The notes under the pieces are model-generated. The model saw nothing but the letters and a program-made list of their open reading frames with translations. It made no database searches and was not told the origin of the DNA. A stretch of 22,757 bases of DNA, filler included. It is 4 parts of 4 records of this genome, joined end to end, with 100 filler letters (N's around TTAATTAATTAA, not from the genome) between each part and the next. Parts side by side here need not be neighbours in the genome. Positions count along the whole stretch, not along the records: positions 1 to 5,123 come from SRR31156797_261949; 3 more parts are not named here. One strand, written 5' to 3'. This document shows, in pieces, positions 1 through 16,329 of this stretch. Position numbers and translations under genes: made by a program. Numbering within the stretch: position 1 is the stretch's first letter; the number at the start of each line of letters is the position of its first letter.

Positions 1-1396
1 CCGCATCTACGGTGCATATGCCGAGTGCTTCCAAGGAGGTGTACTTGTCAGCGTCAATTTCGGACAGACGCTTCGCAACAGCTGGCATGGAGGAAGCTTC
101 GGTGGCGCCTTCAGCAATCAGGATTCGTCGAGCGAGGAGGCCTTCGCAAAAGCGCGTTCGAAATTCTTGCCGGTAGCGCTTTGGCTTCACGCTTTCTGGC
201 AACTCAATCTTGGCGCGAGATAGCACCCCTTCATTATCTCGGCTGATTACGATCGTTTGGTCTAGTTCAAACTCCTCCAGCACATACGGAGAATGTGACG
301 TAAAGATCGTCTGGGACGATAGATTTCGAACTTCGTGAACGATTCGCTTTTGGGCGTATGGGGGAATTGCCGTTTCTGGTTCCTCCATCGCAAAAATGAC
401 ATTCTGTTTGTCTTGGGCGATCTGAGACAGCATCGCTAAGACAAGCATATTGATAGTACCCGTTCCTTGCCGGTAGAACGGCGCAGCATGCGTACCGTCA
501 CCTGTCGCAATGAATGCGGTAATAACTTTGCGGAGGTGTTCTCTCGTAAGGTTCGAGACGCGAAGGTGCGGTTCTACGCCCCATTCTTTCGGCACATATT
601 TTTTTAGCGAAGCATTGATGCTCTCCAGTACGCCAACGATGCCGAGGTCGGGGTCACTTGCCACAGTGAAGTCTGATAGACTGCTCAATGTCTTTTCCCA
701 CATCTGTGGCCGCAAGTCCTTCAGCCGCAAAATGATGTCCAGCAGACTGCCTCGTTCCAAACTGAGTGCGCGTGATCCCGTTCGGAGAGAGCGCAAATAT
801 AGGAAGCCGCATTTTTGTTTGTCTGTTCGACGGAACCGAACAGGGGTTTCGCCTTCTATCAGGCTTCGCGTGAAGTATGAATTCCCTTCGAAGTCGTCGT
901 CTTCTGGGACATATCGGCCAACAAAAGTTACGCGCAGGGCGGATACGATATTGTCTTTGTCAACGCCGGTGGGGTTCGGGCTCTCGTAGAGCTTTTCCTT
1001 ATTTGTATCCCACCATTCGACATCGTTACCAAAGCGAGCACGTTGCTCATCGGAAAGTCCGGTTATCAAGACCTCAATTTTAATTTCCGGAGCGAATGCA
1101 GCGTTTTCGTCTTCTTTGTCGGAGTCTGCGACAGCGTCCTCCTGCTCAACTGACGAACTATTGTCTTCCGTAGTTGGCTGCGTTAATGGGGCAACGTAAT
1201 TGCCTCGGAAGAAATCATGCTCGTCAATTGGGGCCGCACGATTGAGCCGATCAGGGCCCAAAGCCAGATCTATCGCTTCAAGGATAGTTGTCTTGCCTGT
1301 GTTGTTGTCGCCGATTAGTACTGCATGATTTGGCAACAAGAAAGTTGCCGAACTGATACCGCGGAAATTTTGTATATCGAGCTTGCTAATTCGCAA
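1..1396 (-). CDS. OLD-family ATP-dependent endonuclease (ABC-type ATPase + TOPRIM), 3'-truncated by the window edge
   Basis: Absent from the ORF track; translated by hand. TTG start at 1396 after a GGAGG RBS. N-terminus MRISKLDIQNFRGI, Walker A LIGDNNTGKTT, signature-like FYRQGTG, Walker B IFAMEEPE, H-loop TSHSPY, TOPRIM motif RRILIAEGATE. The translated N- and C-terminal parts share one frame that runs off position 1. Confidence 0.92.
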   Translation of the reverse strand, partial: MRISKLDIQNFRGISSATFLLPNHAVLIGDNNTGKTTILEAIDLALGPDRLNRAAPIDEHDFFRGNYVAPLTQPTTEDNSSSVEQEDAVADSDKEDENAAFAPEIKIEVLITGLSDEQRARFGNDVEWWDTNKEKLYESPNPTGVDKDNIVSALRVTFVGRYVPEDDDFEGNSYFTRSLIEGETPVRFRRTDKQKCGFLYLRSLRTGSRALSLERGSLLDIILRLKDLRPQMWEKTLSSLSDFTVASDPDLGIVGVLESINASLKKYVPKEWGVEPHLRVSNLTREHLRKVITAFIATGDGTHAAPFYRQGTGTINMLVLAMLSQIAQDKQNVIFAMEEPETAIPPYAQKRIVHEVRNLSSQTIFTSHSPYVLEEFELDQTIVISRDNEGVLSRAKIELPESVKPKRYRQEFRTRFCEGLLARRILIAEGATEASSMPAVAKRLSEIDADKYTSLEALGICTVDA

Positions 1397-1512: not shown

Positions 1513-1773
1513 CTATTTATCCATAGTGGTTTCGGTAGTGCAAAGGACTCGACCTGTACGCATTTTGCCGAATTTGTAGCGTTTCCCTAATTGCCGCCGC
1601 CCTTCTAGCCAAGCTTCGATTTCAACCGCTTTCCAGTATTTTCGGCTATTAACCCTCACCGGCTTGGGAAAACCAAGGGCATCATCCTTTTCCCATCGCC
1701 AGATGGTCATAGCCGAAACATTGCCGACTATGGCGCGAAGGCGGGCTGTTGTGATGTAGATGCTATTGTCCAT
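1513..1773 (-). CDS. AlpA-family helix-turn-helix protein (excisionase / recombination directionality factor-like)
   Basis: MDNSIYITTARLRAIVGNVSAMTIWRWEKDDALGFPKPVRVNSRKYWKAVEIEAWL matches the AlpA pattern (S..TIWRW...FPKP...W...EIEAWL). Start placed at Met44 of the 129-aa ORF. The longer start at 1902, overlapping the upstream stop as ATGA, cannot be excluded. Confidence 0.82.
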   Translation of the reverse strand: MDNSIYITTARLRAIVGNVSAMTIWRWEKDDALGFPKPVRVNSRKYWKAVEIEAWLEGRRQLGKRYKFGKMRTGRVLCTTETTMDK

Positions 1774-1793
1774 GGCAACACCGATCTGATGTC

Positions 1794-1832
1794 TGGCAAT
1801 TGCTTGATCATTGCCATCAGTCAAATTTTGAC
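1794..1832. promoter_or_regulatory. Two adjacent inverted repeats, candidate operator or protein-binding sites
   Basis: TGGCAAT-N9-ATTGCCA (1794-1816) and GTCAAA-T-TTTGAC (1820-1832), immediately upstream of the AlpA-like start. Confidence 0.35.
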
Positions 1833-1898
1833 AGTCGAAGAACGCAGCTCTCCTCATCTTGGTTTGGAAACTTCTCTCTCGATGCCTCGCTGCTCTAA

Positions 1899-2258
1899 TC
1901 ATTCATCAAAGTAGTAGGTCGTTTCCTTGCTCAGCTTGTCGCCAATGAGCAGCCTTCCGAGAGGCGGAACAGTTGGGTGGATGTTTTTGAGGTCTGTTCT
2001 TACAGTGATTTTTCCTTTTCCGTCCCTCATTGCGTCCCGCAAAAACGACTCTGAAACGCTGTTGTCGATAAGGCTGTCTGCTTCTTCCTTTTCCTGCTTT
2101 TTCGCAGCAGGATAGCCGCCAGCGAATCCCGCAGTAGCAACAACGATACCGGCTACAGGACCAAACACGGCACCCATAATGAAGCCAAAAGTGACGCTCG
2201 CGACGACGACTTCAGTCGTCCTGCTGGAGGTAACTTTGTGCTTTACTCTGACTCTCAT
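1899..2258 (-). CDS. Hypothetical protein with a glycine-rich hydrophobic (glycine-zipper-like) membrane segment
   Basis: Segment VVVASVTFGFIMGAVFGPVAGIVVATAGFAGG followed by a charged soluble tail. ATGA overlap with the upstream stop at 2255-2258 and a GAGGA RBS. Confidence 0.7.
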   Translation of the reverse strand: MRVRVKHKVTSSRTTEVVVASVTFGFIMGAVFGPVAGIVVATAGFAGGYPAAKKQEKEEADSLIDNSVSESFLRDAMRDGKGKITVRTDLKNIHPTVPPLGRLLIGDKLSKETTYYFDE

Positions 2259-2689
2259 TTTCCAGGTCCTCTGAGATAATAGTTGCGACGTTCACGAGAT
2301 CGCTGAACTTCAACGGTTATCGTGCAGGATTTTCCAAAGAGGCCGGATAACTTCGCCTTGGCGCGGCACTTCATGTAGCTCGGCATAGGATCATCGTGAT
2401 ACATGGCCAGCGTCTGGGACATCGCGTCACTGGTGCTTGAAATCAGAAACATGGTCTCAAGTGTATCCAGCCTCATCCTCTCGATGGACAAAAGGGTGCG
2501 TGCTTTGGTTTCGGCGATGTTCTCCTGCATACGCGCGAAACGGTGAAAGGCCTCAGATTGGGTTTTGGCAACTTCTATGTCGTTCTGACTTGCCCCATAA
2601 ATGGGGAAGTTAAAAATCGGTAGTTTTGACAGACTTTCGCCAGTCTCGAAGATTCCTGAATTCTGAGAGAGCACGGGCAGTTTGCTCAT
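2255..2689 (-). CDS. Hypothetical protein, 144 aa, with a helical or coiled-coil-like middle
   Basis: ATG at 2689 follows a GGAGGT RBS and lies 1 nt after the upstream stop (2691-2693). Its stop overlaps the next start. No recognisable family. Confidence 0.7.
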   Translation of the reverse strand: MSKLPVLSQNSGIFETGESLSKLPIFNFPIYGASQNDIEVAKTQSEAFHRFARMQENIAETKARTLLSIERMRLDTLETMFLISSTSDAMSQTLAMYHDDPMPSYMKCRAKAKLSGLFGKSCTITVEVQRSRERRNYYLRGPGK

Positions 2690-2690
2690 A

Positions 2691-3131
2691 TCAACCTCCA
2701 TCCAACGCTAAGCTGAATTTCTTTTTGTTTTCCGTTTCGACATTCGACGCGGAAAACAATTCAGAAAATTCCTTAAGTCGTTGCAATGCTTGCGGTAATG
2801 ACAGAACGAATAACTCGCGCGTATTTGATGTGAGCGAAAATCGTGTAAGGGCGCGTTGGACTGATTGAGCTACATTCGGGGTCGGAACCAGAAGCCAAAG
2901 GTCAGATGCATCCAACGCAGAGGCCTTAACCAAATCATTCGCAACCCGTCTTGGCGTTAATTCGGCCTCGACCAAAACCAAACGCGAGTGATCCCGTATA
3001 ACCAAGTCCCCGAATAGAACGCGCTCGCCGAAGACAATTGGCACCTCGCAATCGACGTGGAATCCAAGCTGCGAAGCCTTGTGCGCTATCGGCTCGAGCA
3101 AAACGCGGTTATGGAGATATCCGCCTCTCAC
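2691..3131 (-). CDS. PD-(D/E)xK-superfamily nuclease-like protein
   Basis: GTG start overlapping the ATPase stop (GTGA) with a strong GGAGGT RBS. Motifs H7, E29, G-D42-LVI and E55-A-E57-L, then a hydrophobic strand LWLLVP. This is a restriction-endonuclease-like acidic triad of the D..ExE type. Confidence 0.68.
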   Translation of the reverse strand: MRGGYLHNRVLLEPIAHKASQLGFHVDCEVPIVFGERVLFGDLVIRDHSRLVLVEAELTPRRVANDLVKASALDASDLWLLVPTPNVAQSVQRALTRFSLTSNTRELFVLSLPQALQRLKEFSELFSASNVETENKKKFSLALDGG

Positions 3132-4804
3132 TTCGCCACCTCCACCGTGATGTTTCGCATTGCCTGCAATGCTGGCTCGAGGGGCTCAAGAACCACTGCT
3201 GCTCTTCCTCTCAAACCCGTGCTGACTCTGTGCTCGCGAAGATATCCAAGTTCGACCAGGTAACGTCTTATCCGGAGCGCACGCTTGGAGCTCGTGCGGG
3301 CGAGTTTCGGCAGTTCGCTTGAGGGTTTACCGGGATGTTCGACGACTGCACGGATATACCGAAGCTCTACCTCTGATAATTCACCGTTGCTTTCTTTCTC
3401 TGCCGATGCAGAGGGTGGGCGTCCGTTTTTCGATGTTGCTCTATCCCAATCGGTAAGCTCGTCGACCCGTTGCGTGGGCAACGTGATGAGATCGCTTTGC
3501 TCCGCATCGTCAAGCGCATCAACACGCGGAGGGCTATTCAATCGCACATGAGGGATCTCTAGGACGAATGGGCGTCGCCAATCGCCTTCGCCAACTTGGC
3601 CTACGAACAATCCTGGCCGCAGGTTGATGTTCAACCAGTTTCGCTGCTCCCGCGTCAGCCCCATGGAAGCCGCAATCCTGTCATAGTCGGAAGCGCTCCC
3701 ACAGCGCCCAATGAACTTGTTCGCGGTGTTGCTGAACACGGCACTGTCCACGTCAGCCGATTGGACCGAAAGGTCAAGCCCAACGCCGGTGCCTCGAACA
3801 AGGCCTATGAGATTGGCTATCCCTTTGGATTGGTTGGTTGCCGACACCAATCGTGCGGCTTCGTCGCAGCAGATCCAGAGATCCATTTTCGGATTGGAAA
3901 CTCCACCGGCCACACGGGAGGCGAATTCCGAAAGAGTTAGGCTGTTCAGAATGAGGTTCTTGTCGGTTTCAGATATGCCACCGAGTTCGAAGACGATATG
4001 GCGTTTGGCTAAGTCGCTGGTCTTCCATCCCACACAGTAACGTAGCGCATCGCCGATGGACATAAGGACCGGATCGAGCGAGTCCACAGCAGCCTGCTTA
4101 GCTTGCGGATTTGCGTTCGGATCTCTCGCAATTGTCTCCCGAAGATCAAACAGCGTCGGATAGTGTTCCGCGCCATCAAGGACACCGAATTGCTGATACA
4201 TTTGCAGAACGGTCAGGTGTAGCAACTTCGTGGCGCGTGACGGCAACTGAAGCGTTTGAACGAGAATATCCGCGATGCGCGATGCCCATTCGCGTGGAGA
4301 AACACGATCTTGGCATTGCAGGGGATTGAAACGGATTTCTCTGGCGCGCACGACCGAAAAATTGACGCCAAGTTGCGCGAGATGAGGTTTCAAGGCTCCG
4401 AATTCCCGTTTTTCGAAATCCCAGGCCCAAAGCCCTTTTACGCCGCTGGCAACCTGAAGGATCAGGAATTTTGATCTGGTCGTCTTACCTGATCCCGATC
4501 CGCCAATCGTTAGTGAGTGGCCGTTGAGATATCTCATCGGTAAACGGATCGGATTCTCGTGCCGATCGGTTCCCAAAGAGAAGTCTCCTTCTCTTAACTT
4601 CGGAAGCTCAAAAGGTCCGGCAAAAGCCCGTGCGATCTTGTGCTTTCTGACGGGCTGCTGGATCAGGCTCGAAACCAAATCGTCGACAACGCCGCATCTC
4701 ATCAGCCGTGAGACAGTGCGGCCGACATCATTGTCCAGAAGACGATGCTCTTGCGCATAAATCAGATCCTGAACCAGCTTTGGAACGGTGTTGTCGGTAG
4801 TCAT
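3128..4804 (-). CDS. HerA/FtsK/VirB4-VirD4-superfamily P-loop ATPase with C-terminal winged helix-turn-helix
   Basis: Walker A TIGGSGSGKTT, WAWDFEKREF, Walker B WICCDEAA, arginine-finger/sensor region VRGTGVGLDLSVQS, NTANKFIGR. C-terminal MarR-like wHTH: LSEVELRYIRAVVEHPGKPSSELPKLARTSSKRALRIRRYLVELGYLRE. No transmembrane anchor seen. Confidence 0.85.
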   Translation of the reverse strand: MTTDNTVPKLVQDLIYAQEHRLLDNDVGRTVSRLMRCGVVDDLVSSLIQQPVRKHKIARAFAGPFELPKLREGDFSLGTDRHENPIRLPMRYLNGHSLTIGGSGSGKTTRSKFLILQVASGVKGLWAWDFEKREFGALKPHLAQLGVNFSVVRAREIRFNPLQCQDRVSPREWASRIADILVQTLQLPSRATKLLHLTVLQMYQQFGVLDGAEHYPTLFDLRETIARDPNANPQAKQAAVDSLDPVLMSIGDALRYCVGWKTSDLAKRHIVFELGGISETDKNLILNSLTLSEFASRVAGGVSNPKMDLWICCDEAARLVSATNQSKGIANLIGLVRGTGVGLDLSVQSADVDSAVFSNTANKFIGRCGSASDYDRIAASMGLTREQRNWLNINLRPGLFVGQVGEGDWRRPFVLEIPHVRLNSPPRVDALDDAEQSDLITLPTQRVDELTDWDRATSKNGRPPSASAEKESNGELSEVELRYIRAVVEHPGKPSSELPKLARTSSKRALRIRRYLVELGYLREHRVSTGLRGRAAVVLEPLEPALQAMRNITVEVAK

Positions 4805-4825
4805 CGTTATGATCCCAACTGACTT

Positions 4826-5123
4826 TCATCGAAGCAGGAAGCGTTTGACCGAGCTGAAGAGCATTCGTTTTCTCTCGACCTTGAAACAAGGCCTGCAAAG
4901 TCGAAGCTCGATACCATTGTCAAAAACGATAAAACCGGAGTGACCCTGACAAATCGGTTTTCCGCAACGGCAATGACTAAAGCACGAGGCACATGTCAAA
5001 CCGCTGGTGCCGGACAGCATGCAGTCAACGCAATAACCTCCCGGGGCGTTGCCTATGCAACCGCAATCGTAGGCGATTTGTCTCTCCACACGGCAAGTGT
5101 TGAGCTGGCCAGTGGGCGATAGG
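4826..5123 (-). CDS. Cys-rich multi-zinc-finger protein, probably 5'-truncated by the gap
   Basis: 11 Cys in 87 aa arranged CxC, CxxC, CxxC, CxC, CxxH, CxxC. The frame stays open upstream of the GTG at 5089 to the contig end (LSPTGQLNTCRVERQ). Confidence 0.72.
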
Positions 5124-5223
5124 NNNNNNNNNNNNNNNNNNNNNNNNNNNNNNNNNNNNNNNNNNNNTTAATTAATTAANNNNNNNNNNNNNNNNNNNNN
5201 NNNNNNNNNNNNNNNNNNNNNNN
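5124..5223. other. Artificial contig spacer (N-run with six-frame stop linker)
   Basis: 100 nt of N with TTAATTAATTAA at 5168-5179; identical layout at the other two gaps. Confidence 0.98.
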
Positions 5224-10765: not shown

Positions 10766-10865
10766 NNNNNNNNNNNNNNNNNNNNNNNNNNNNNNNNNNN
10801 NNNNNNNNNTTAATTAATTAANNNNNNNNNNNNNNNNNNNNNNNNNNNNNNNNNNNNNNNNNNNN
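10766..10865. other. Artificial contig spacer
   Basis: 100 nt of N with TTAATTAATTAA at 10810-10821. Confidence 0.98.
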
Positions 10866-16229: not shown

Positions 16230-16329
16230 NNNNNNNNNNNNNNNNNNNNNNNNNNNNNNNNNNNNNNNNNNNNTTAATTAATTAANNNNNNNNNNNNNNN
16301 NNNNNNNNNNNNNNNNNNNNNNNNNNNNN
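16230..16329. other. Artificial contig spacer
   Basis: 100 nt of N with TTAATTAATTAA at 16274-16285. Confidence 0.98.

Follow-up and report, generated by a model that had tools for sequence, protein, structure and literature searches.

A conserved FtsK/HerA-like ATPase and nuclease cassette on a compact integrative element, and its tentative place among defence systems

The window analysed in this study is a stretch of 22,757 nucleotides, filler included, in which positions 1513 to 5123 hold six genes, among them those of a predicted FtsK/HerA-like ATPase and a small putative nuclease. We read this set as a variant of a conserved cassette that rides on a compact, site-specific integrative element. 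Mobile elements that pair a nuclease with an ATPase of the FtsK/HerA superfamily are a known kind; what is new is the cassette itself, which is widely conserved and undescribed. No description of it (a core of zinc-finger protein, ATPase, nuclease and two-transmembrane protein, with a recombinase) was found in the profile libraries and the accessible portions of the literature searched; a partial earlier mention elsewhere is possible. The overlapping genes, the gene fusions, and the invariant Walker motifs and nuclease residues suggest an ATPase-nuclease machine, which we tentatively take to be of the defence type, at a probability somewhat short of even. A sequence-only reading of the window had offered two alternatives, the transfer/replication core of a minimal integrative element or a defence module; the minimal integrative element is now well supported, and either job may be that of the cassette.

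Gene layout and the ATPase-nuclease core

The window joins four contigs through linkers (5124-5223, 10766-10865 and 16230-16329), each made of 44 N, TTAATTAATTAA and a further 44 N. The gene set is confined to contig 1 (1-5123), a fragment truncated on either side, with a GC content of 0.516, against 0.611, 0.612 and 0.626 in the other three contigs. Its six open reading frames (ORFs) are co-oriented, all on the minus strand:

5089-4826 (frame region 4826..5123), minus strand: Cys-rich zinc-finger protein (ZnF), from the ORF and its homologues
4804-3128, minus strand: ATPase of 558 amino acids (aa), from the ORF, a fold model and a motif alignment
3131-2691, minus strand: putative nuclease of 146 aa with a predicted PD-(D/E)xK fold, from the ORF, an AlphaFold (AF2) model and Foldseek
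2689-2255, minus strand: OrfA, 144 aa, no recognisable domain, from the ORF and close-clade homologues
2258-1899, minus strand: OrfTM, 119 aa, with a glycine zipper, from the ORF and hydropathy
1902-1513, minus strand: ORF of 129 aa for an AlpA-like helix-turn-helix (HTH) protein, from a Pfam match below cut-off and PHROG matches

The genes from the ATPase onward overlap or nearly abut. The nuclease start overlaps the ATPase stop in a GTGA at 3131-3128, and the nuclease is thus predicted to be translationally coupled to the ATPase. The nuclease stop (2693-2691) is followed by the single base 2690 and the OrfA ATG at 2689; OrfA and OrfTM share an ATGA at 2258-2255, and OrfTM and the AlpA-like ORF another at 1902-1899. 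A GGAGG-type motif stands ahead of the nuclease start and of the OrfA start, the remaining starts having a weak motif or none. In a weak consensus scan, no terminator-like or promoter-like site was found on the minus strand within 1513-5123, the sole minus-strand promoter-like site (825-796) lying in the neighbouring gene gajA; this is weak evidence that the block from ZnF to AlpA may be one transcription unit. The sequence-only reading had the six co-oriented genes, the lower GC content and the first three of these junctions right; its ribosome-binding motifs hold before the nuclease and OrfA and are weak or missing at the other starts.

When the AF2 model of the ATPase (pLDDT 86.7) was compared with the PDB by Foldseek, 158 matches were obtained at E<=0.001. 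The top match was the C-terminal domain of DndH (7es4, E 1.5e-12, TM 0.75 on target), followed by VirB4 at ranks 2-6 (7e-12), HerA (9e-11) and TrwB (1.4e-8), and the matches include Sir2-HerA, DUF4297-HerA and TdpAB, the HerA-type structures spanning E values from 9e-11 to 3.7e-8. The modelled fold places the protein, as a hexamer-type ATPase, in the FtsK/HerA/VirB4 superfamily. When it was aligned with 36 of 120 listed homologues, chosen for spread and long contigs, G104, G106, K107, T108 and D314 proved invariant and E315 nearly so; G104-T108 form the Walker A motif and D314-E315 the Walker B motif, and the N-terminal part is helical. Residues ~478-558 model as helix-helix-helix-strand-strand, the topology of a predicted C-terminal winged helix, whose sole echo in sequence is a MarR chain at E 0.19. 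No strongly hydrophobic stretch was seen at the N terminus when the sequence was read by eye.

Profile matches of the ATPase are distant. Pfam FtsK_SpoIIIE (PF01580) scores 14.2 bits against a gathering cut-off of 24 bits; it reaches E<=0.01 in 8 of 37 family members, the best (L011, 22.9 bits) still lying below the cut-off, and the HerA central domain DUF87 (PF01935; cut-off 23.2 bits) reaches that level in 1 of 37, none of the scores displayed attaining its cut-off. The best PADLOC match is mad8 (E 2.4e-6), with DndH models at 0.0026 and the HerA model PDLC01055 at 0.01. The NCBIfam matches to VirB4, TraD and CedD are weak (1.3e-4 to 2e-3), SXT_TraD giving 18.4 bits against a cut-off of 366 and VirB4_plasma 19.9 against 590. 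None of the six proteins has a match over the curated cut-off in Pfam, NCBIfam, PADLOC or PHROGs, and no model in these libraries claims the ATPase, the nuclease, OrfA or OrfTM.

The AF2 model of the nuclease (pLDDT 83.6) has the order alpha-beta-beta-beta-alpha-beta, DSSP assigning helices to residues 3-21 and 60-72 and strands to 25-34, 37-46, 51-56 and 77-81. Its top Foldseek matches are all PD-(D/E)xK proteins (R2 RLE, AF1548, Bax1, Can2, NucS and restriction enzymes), with weak scores (E 3.5e-4 to 1e-2, TM 0.4-0.5), and the model thus places it in the PD-(D/E)xK core fold. H7, D42, E55, E57 and K69 are invariant in 18 sequences. D42 lies on strand 2 and E55-x-E57 on strand 3, where E57 fills the position of the canonical lysine, and the invariant K69 is placed in the helix after strand 3. 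A relocated-lysine variant of the D...(D/E)xK triad is plausible from this pattern, and the nuclease is likely to be catalytically competent. In one relative (L014) ATPase and nuclease form a single protein; of 266 family proteins, nine are fused in this way at E<=1e-3, five of these at E<=1e-6.

The third core protein, ZnF, is 87 aa long when read from the GTG at 5089, its relatives having 132-143 aa. Its frame stays open to the contig end, and a hidden Markov model (HMM) matches 4829-5122; the gene may therefore be cut at its 5' side by the end of the contig. Ten cysteines (C9, C11, C20, C23, C33, C36, C40, C42, C65 and C68) are invariant in six homologues. For all three proteins the calls of the sequence-only reading (Zn finger, HerA/VirD4-type ATPase with a winged HTH, PD-(D/E)xK nuclease) agree with these results, as does its statement that no named system fits, the four libraries giving only sub-threshold matches at superfamily level.

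The conserved unit in related loci

The ATPase family is large. A word-index search, in which 8,000 candidates were scored, gave 245 homologues at E<=0.001, none with a Pfam domain or a name beyond 'hypothetical protein', and an ATPase profile run against 1.84 billion representatives matched 283 clusters at E<=1e-30, 1,606 at 1e-10 and 4,324 at 0.001, clusters being counted at 50% identity. The cassette has no match in 50,697 phage records and IMG/VR, and 72,556 plasmids gave only two weak archaeal matches to the ATPase (31% identity over 32% of the query). In the collections searched, it thus appears not to be a phage or plasmid gene set, which we count in favor of defence.

A scan of genome contigs gave one locus (L001), and a metagenome scan one weak locus. 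Carriers in the L001 lineage number 7 of 401 genomes in a phylum sample, 12 of 401 in a class sample and 20 of 279 in a sample of the order of G713, for a total of 31 carrier genomes across the three samples. Since LpxC is above cut-off in all five carrier genomes tested (G001, G285, G530, G713 and G753), the hosts are taken to be diderms. DUF1559-type proteins match in the same number of carrier genomes, 5/5, four of them above the family cut-off, and DUF1559 presumably points to the Planctomycetota/Verrucomicrobiota group. On these two markers an assignment of the relatives to Actinomycetota was rejected; the label 'Actinomycetes bacterium' of L001 is probably a mislabel, its lineage being diderm, and analogies to TraB and to actinomycete integrative and conjugative elements (AICE) were dropped once the hosts proved diderm.

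Neighbourhoods were examined at 29 loci from 27 of the 31 carrier genomes, with Pfam on 220 neighbouring proteins, BLAST, and custom HMMs over six-frame translations. Loci on contigs of ~3 kb or less (L008, L056, L061, L066, L067/L071) were omitted, and G154, G782, G789 and G894 have no other locus included. The gene order in the relatives is ZnF, ATPase, nuclease, a two-transmembrane (TM) protein called TM2, a vWA module, an HTH_17 gene and a recombinase. In 26 of 29 loci the gene immediately before the ATPase is that of ZnF, the upstream DNA of the other three being missing or cut by an insertion sequence (IS), and the nuclease is directly downstream of the ATPase, or fused to it, in 27; it was not found in L036, whose ATPase is truncated, or in L087. 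This is the conserved neighbourhood that the sequence-only reading had looked to as a check on its proposal. After the nuclease, 24 of the 29 loci have TM2 (70-90 aa, with the start M-(R/K)-(I/V)-(K/R)-W). Of the rest, L031, L036, L086 and L087 gave no TM2 match, and the sequence of L075 stops short of its position. Just before ZnF, tblastn detected a hydrophobic protein of 59 aa, L2, in 18 of 26 loci. TM2 is followed in 15 loci by GrpE-like and Hsp70-like genes, usually with a vWA gene (L014 has no GrpE-like gene, and in L031 the Hsp70 set lies upstream of the ATPase rather than after TM2), and in eight loci, plus one partial case, by a TerY-P-like set of a PP2C phosphatase, a Ser/Thr kinase (some with FHA) and a vWA protein, to which some sets add a zinc ribbon. 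An HTH_17 excisionase-like gene stands just before the recombinase in 10 loci.

The recombinase was counted in the 21 loci with enough downstream DNA. Fifteen carry a tyrosine recombinase (10 by Pfam, 5 by a custom HMM at E 1e-111 or better) and three a large serine recombinase; one holds a serine-recombinase fragment and one a weak tyrosine match (E 0.0013), leaving L032 as the only assessable locus with no recombinase. A tRNA gene lies beside the recombinase at 11 loci (Glu, Asp, Met x2, Pro x4, Val, Arg and Thr); 10 scanned loci have no tRNA gene. A nearby integrase and tRNA, which had likewise been put forward as signs to look for, are therefore present among the relatives.

The unit has definable ends. 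G950 carries three copies that are 84-85% identical at the DNA level as far as their contigs reach, with a sharp left boundary ~45 nt before a further small gene, L1, and ~560 bp upstream of ZnF. The two genes that open the unit there, also seen in L077 and L078, are:

L076:5594-5878: L1, 95 aa
L076:5893-6069: L2, 59 aa, hydrophobic

Between genomes, DNA similarity (65-71%) starts at or within ~240 bp of the ZnF start and runs to the stop codon of the integrase, with unrelated flanks; L079 5611-13426, for one, aligns with L080 3193-11010. The unit is ~7.8-8.3 kb long and reads (L1)-L2-ZnF-ATPase-nuclease-TM2-three-gene module-HTH-recombinase. It is well supported that the cassette in these relatives travels as a compact site-specific integrative element. 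Some copies are decayed: the ATPase is broken by stops in G865, G899 and G980, an IS21 has inserted in G285, and the G558 copy is truncated. At the G285 locus (L012:11187-16326), an IstA/IstB IS21-type pair, a DDE transposase and a reverse transcriptase fragment interrupt the ATPase.

Attachment-site (att) repeats, also proposed as a sign of integration, were not recovered. BLAST of the tRNA with +/-60 nt against 40 kb, repeat finding and two exact-word scans at 11 nt or more gave no direct repeat of at least 11 nt linking the tRNA/integrase side to the far side, a result that either counts against a cleanly delimited island or means that the att cores are short. No empty site could be defined through the relatives of G753, which are ~70% identical and not syntenic. 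On contig C6 of G753 (L048:3293-3344) there is a 46-nt copy of the 3' half of a tRNA-Pro that abuts the integrase on contig C72; it resembles an att remnant but was not counted as one, the genes on its predicted island side (racemase, gluconolactonase) looking like housekeeping genes. Integrase and ATPase identities are correlated with a Spearman rho of 0.35 over pairs that are not independent, and L029 and L034 have integrases that are 53% identical and ATPases that are 32% identical. The two trees thus seem only loosely coupled.

The window variant and its neighbours

The window shares ZnF, ATPase and nuclease with the wider family, to which its ATPase is 30-58% and its nuclease 32-40% identical by BLAST; within its close clade identity is 65-67%. 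The place of TM2 and the vWA module is taken by OrfA and the glycine-zipper protein OrfTM, and that of HTH_17 by the AlpA-like gene. HMMs of OrfA, OrfTM and AlpA found no match in 14 loci, and BLAST none in the other loci searched. The conserved unit therefore differs from the six-gene set that had been proposed as a unit: by the similarity searches, OrfA is conserved only in the close clade of the window, and OrfTM and AlpA appear to be positional analogues, having no detectable homologues in the wider family. The membership of a recombinase is known from the relatives, the window contig ending inside gajA at one side, with the position of L2 falling beyond its other end.

OrfA has six homologues at 41-50% identity. 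One (P0135) is on a contig of 28,077 bp, as are an ATPase (P0009) and a nuclease (P0122), and another (P0136) is on a contig of 3,022 bp, as is a nuclease (P0125); co-location of OrfA with ATPase and nuclease in the close clade is read from these equal contig sizes only. A kinship of OrfA to GrpE was considered and rejected (hhalign against the GrpE-like proteins, probability 0.1), and in the atlas search neither OrfA nor OrfTM had a look-alike scoring 0.9 or more. OrfTM has a GxxxGxxxGxxxG glycine zipper at residues 25-37 in its one hydrophobic segment (residues 14-32 by hydropathy), with a soluble tail after it. Its leading look-alike, Gly-zipper_Omp/MccV, is sub-threshold at 0.76, and it is not alignable with the two-TM protein family of the relatives.

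The AlpA-like domain occupies residues 62-106 of the 129-aa ORF, and because of this position the true start is likely to be the internal ATG at 1773, which would give a protein of 86 aa. Pfam Phage_AlpA (PF05930) scores 19.3 bits against a cut-off of 21 (E 0.001); PHROG matches are to phrog_4745 (DNA-binding, 5.4e-7) and phrog_66 (excisionase/regulator, 1.2e-5), and the PADLOC matches are only the weak mad1 and PDC-M06B. The name AlpA given to this gene by the sequence-only reading thus falls short in Pfam, while the PHROG families fit a DNA-binding or excisionase-type protein. Direct comparison with the HTH_17 (PF12728 clan) proteins of the relatives gave no significant similarity.

Next to the cassette lies a gene that was outside the range and the gene list of the sequence-only reading:

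2..1396, minus strand: Gabija gajA, cut at its 3' side by the contig end, outside the cassette, from PADLOC GajA PDLC00086

It begins 116 nt after the AlpA-like gene and is co-oriented with it. Residues 1-465 align to profile positions 1-437 of 600 (E 3.4e-218), and Pfam finds AAA_15, AAA_21 and the start of an OLD-like TOPRIM domain, as in an OLD-family ATPase-TOPRIM nuclease. The contig ends within gajA, before any gajB. Gabija (GajA/GajB) is a known system separate from the cassette; here it may be cargo between an xis-like gene and int, or a mere neighbour. No Gabija stands beside the cassette in the 29 related loci, barring weak OLD-like matches in L034 and L078.

Genes of types found in defence systems also occur in the flanks of relatives: nSTAND/NACHT in L011, L032 and L035, TIR in L013 and L015, OLD-like AAA_15 in L034, PIN in L029 and Fic in L015. 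Five of these were located:

L013:1179-2171: TIR-pentapeptide gene
L015:973-2433: TIR gene
L035:261-3971: NACHT gene
L011:4773-7184: nSTAND3 gene
L034:105-2045: OLD-like AAA_15 gene

In three genomes a second, larger ATPase of the DUF87/HerA type (632-763 aa) lies ~5-10 kb from the cassette, matching mad8 at E 7.5e-15 and HerA and DndH models at ~1e-10:

L016:17567-19531: second DUF87/HerA-type ATPase
L030:100-2391: second DUF87/HerA-type ATPase
L032:18012-19910: second DUF87/HerA-type ATPase

In L030 it adjoins a long protein with an M48-peptidase match, and a similar protein is present in L033; this ATPase is possibly part of another HerA-based system. Sigma-70/ECF (extracytoplasmic function) sigma-factor genes lie on the ZnF (upstream) side in L029:12982-13584, L014:12607-13203 and L031:9775-10323, those of L029 and L014 on the strand opposite to the cassette.

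Known systems and possible functions

The FtsK-HerA families were reportedly treated by Iyer in 2004, and DNA-processing sets linked to TerY-P are said to figure in work by Anantharaman of 2012. Like the HerA-nuclease complexes (HerA-NurA in repair; Sir2-HerA, DUF4297-HerA and TdpAB in defence), the cassette combines an FtsK/HerA fold with an adjacent, sometimes fused nuclease, but that nuclease is a 146-aa PD-(D/E)xK protein rather than NurA, Sir2 or DUF4297, and the cassette adds a winged helix, ZnF, membrane proteins, a vWA module and linkage to a recombinase. Among the other five proteins of the set there is no match to a Sir2 or DUF4297 effector, four of them matching nothing in PADLOC. 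The closest structural match of the ATPase is the C-terminal motor domain of DndH, of DndFGH restriction; however, DndH has ~1,700 aa and acts with DndF, DndG and a phosphorothioation system, none of which the cassette has.

In the available parts of the sources on MADS, an ATPase-nuclease module MAD7-MAD8, MAD8 being the ATPase, stands beside the Ser/Thr kinase MAD6 (PMC13662399; bioRxiv 10.1101/2023.03.30.534895), and MAD6, MAD7 and MAD8 together are mandatory (bioRxiv 10.1101/2023.03.30.534895). The mad8 match, best in PADLOC for the window ATPase, is stronger in L013 (6.2e-12) and L014 (3.8e-12), and the kinase of some relatives matches mad6 (3.3e-39), a match that any kinase may give. The window itself matches only mad8 and mad1 (0.0064), both weakly, with no mad6 and no mad7; the cassette is without a methyltransferase and without a match to MAD2-5 or MAD7, and none of the mad models is matched by its nuclease. 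At 25-44 bits, the mad8 scores point to distant kinship rather than membership.

TerY-P triads and vWA ternary systems (Anantharaman 2012; Kaur 2020; Bell 2024) consist of the same modules that directly follow the cassette in relatives. As far as the accessible text of PMC11090510 goes, TerY-P/vWA modules are linked to DNA-processing ATPase/nuclease sets, extended TerY-P operons include FtsK/HerA-VirB4-like ATPases, restriction-endonuclease-like proteins and glycine-zipper proteins, and TerY-P triads are both restriction-system accessories and defence systems that stand alone. The window variant, however, is without any such module, and the vWA proteins of the relatives match no PADLOC model.

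We put a defence role first because the structural neighbours of the ATPase include several defence ATPase-nuclease complexes, because MAD8, from the MAD7-MAD8 ATPase-nuclease module, is the closest defence model, because the vWA/PP2C/kinase and vWA/Hsp70 modules of the relatives are known from conflict systems and as restriction accessories (in the parts available of PMC7159879 and PMC11090510), and because the flanks hold Gabija, STAND/NACHT, TIR, OLD-like, PIN and Fic genes. In such a machine, a ring of the ATPase would bind and translocate DNA, the nuclease would dock on the ring and cut the DNA being translocated, and the membrane proteins would act as tether or executor. The vWA/Hsp70 or kinase/phosphatase module would set the threshold of activation, a task that in the window may fall to OrfA and the glycine-zipper protein. 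The cassette would then be an immunity payload against phages or plasmids, by which the element earns its upkeep, and in the window it would adjoin a second defence system, Gabija.

Several observations weigh against this. No defence model fits at family level, the mad8, DndH and HerA matches being at the level of the superfamily; the nuclease, OrfA, OrfTM and ZnF match nothing in PADLOC; and the defence-type flank genes were counted without a background rate. A recombinase is tied to the cassette in 18 of 21 assessable loci, two more having the weak match or the fragment, and order and orientation stay the same in the loci whose recombinase is of the serine instead of the tyrosine family. Homology that ends at the ZnF start and the integrase end has the look of element machinery and not of usual cargo, the cassette being all that the unit carries besides its recombinase, and the presence of conserved small membrane proteins to either side of a VirB4/TrwB-like ATPase (L2 and TM2) fits a membrane DNA pump.

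These same features invite the rather less probable view that the cassette is the element's own machinery for DNA processing and transfer, the element being a minimal mobilisable or self-transmissible one. The ATPase would be a coupling protein or a pump of the VirB4/Ced type anchored to the membrane through the small TM proteins, the nuclease would nick or cut the excised circle, ZnF and the winged helix would pick the site, and the vWA/Hsp70 or kinase module would time the process; MOB_C relaxases, which have a restriction-endonuclease fold, offer a parallel for such a nuclease. Nothing else in the discrete unit, as delimited by the triple copies of G950 and by cross-genome homology from ZnF start to integrase end, could move DNA, and the linkage to a recombinase and, in 11 loci, to a tRNA gene is in keeping with such an element. 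The ATPase resembles VirB4 and TrwB in fold and has weak profile matches to VirB4, TraD and CedD, and its setting is a mobile element; small membrane proteins adjoin the archaeal Ced DNA-import ATPase, as TM2 (24/29 loci) and L2 (18/26) do that of the cassette. The decayed copies in G865, G899, G980, G285 and G558 are as expected of a selfish element. But the ATPase scores far below the cut-offs of these transfer families, apparently has no N-terminal membrane domain, has no coupling-protein Pfam match, and no relaxase or type IV secretion system (T4SS) family was found in the 220 neighbouring proteins, nor was a Rep or primase family in the library scans. The hosts are diderm, and we know of no four-to-six-gene system that exports DNA from diderm cells. 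The cassette is moreover absent from the 72,556 plasmids, in which mobilisation modules are usually common; its vWA/Hsp70 and TerY-P-like modules are known, within the portions of the literature at hand, from conflict systems and not as transfer modules; no att direct repeats were found; and the ATPase tree follows that of the integrase only loosely.

It is quite improbable, in our view, that the cassette maintains the excised element, by replication, partition, or stabilisation through addiction or exclusion. The winged helix might serve to load the ATPase at an origin, and Hsp70 and GrpE might remodel the complex, just as DnaK and GrpE remodel the replication proteins of lambda and P1. The operon does run straight into xis-like and int genes, a layout similar to the rep-xis-int operons of some integrative elements, and in 15 loci the unit has Hsp70 and GrpE paralogues of its own. 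To our knowledge, however, FtsK/HerA-type ATPases are double-strand translocases and not replicative helicases. Pfam gave no initiator, primase or partition family among the window and neighbour proteins, the Hsp70 module is swapped for a kinase/phosphatase set in 8-9 loci and for OrfA and OrfTM in the window, and the membrane proteins would be left unexplained.

A bolder proposal, which we hold to be unlikely, is that the ~8-kb unit is a self-sufficient minimal mobile element of diderms, in which all genes but the recombinase go to build a membrane-anchored HerA/VirB4-like DNA pump with its own PD-(D/E)xK nuclease, gated by a dedicated Hsp70/GrpE/vWA or kinase/phosphatase/vWA switch. It would be a new and very small transfer apparatus, unrelated to conjugation by relaxase and T4SS; the window variant would use OrfA and the glycine-zipper protein, and would have picked up Gabija as cargo.

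Whether it serves defence, as we tentatively prefer, or the element itself, the cassette brings to light a sizeable ATPase family (283 clusters) that is without a name, a Pfam domain, or a defence or conjugation model. If it is an immune system, it would represent a new HerA-type ATPase-nuclease architecture, with membrane partners, control by chaperones or phosphorylation, and a vehicle of its own. If it is instead the engine of the vehicle, it would be an unusually small machine for the transfer or maintenance of DNA. In either case, the unit is short enough to be cloned and tested whole.

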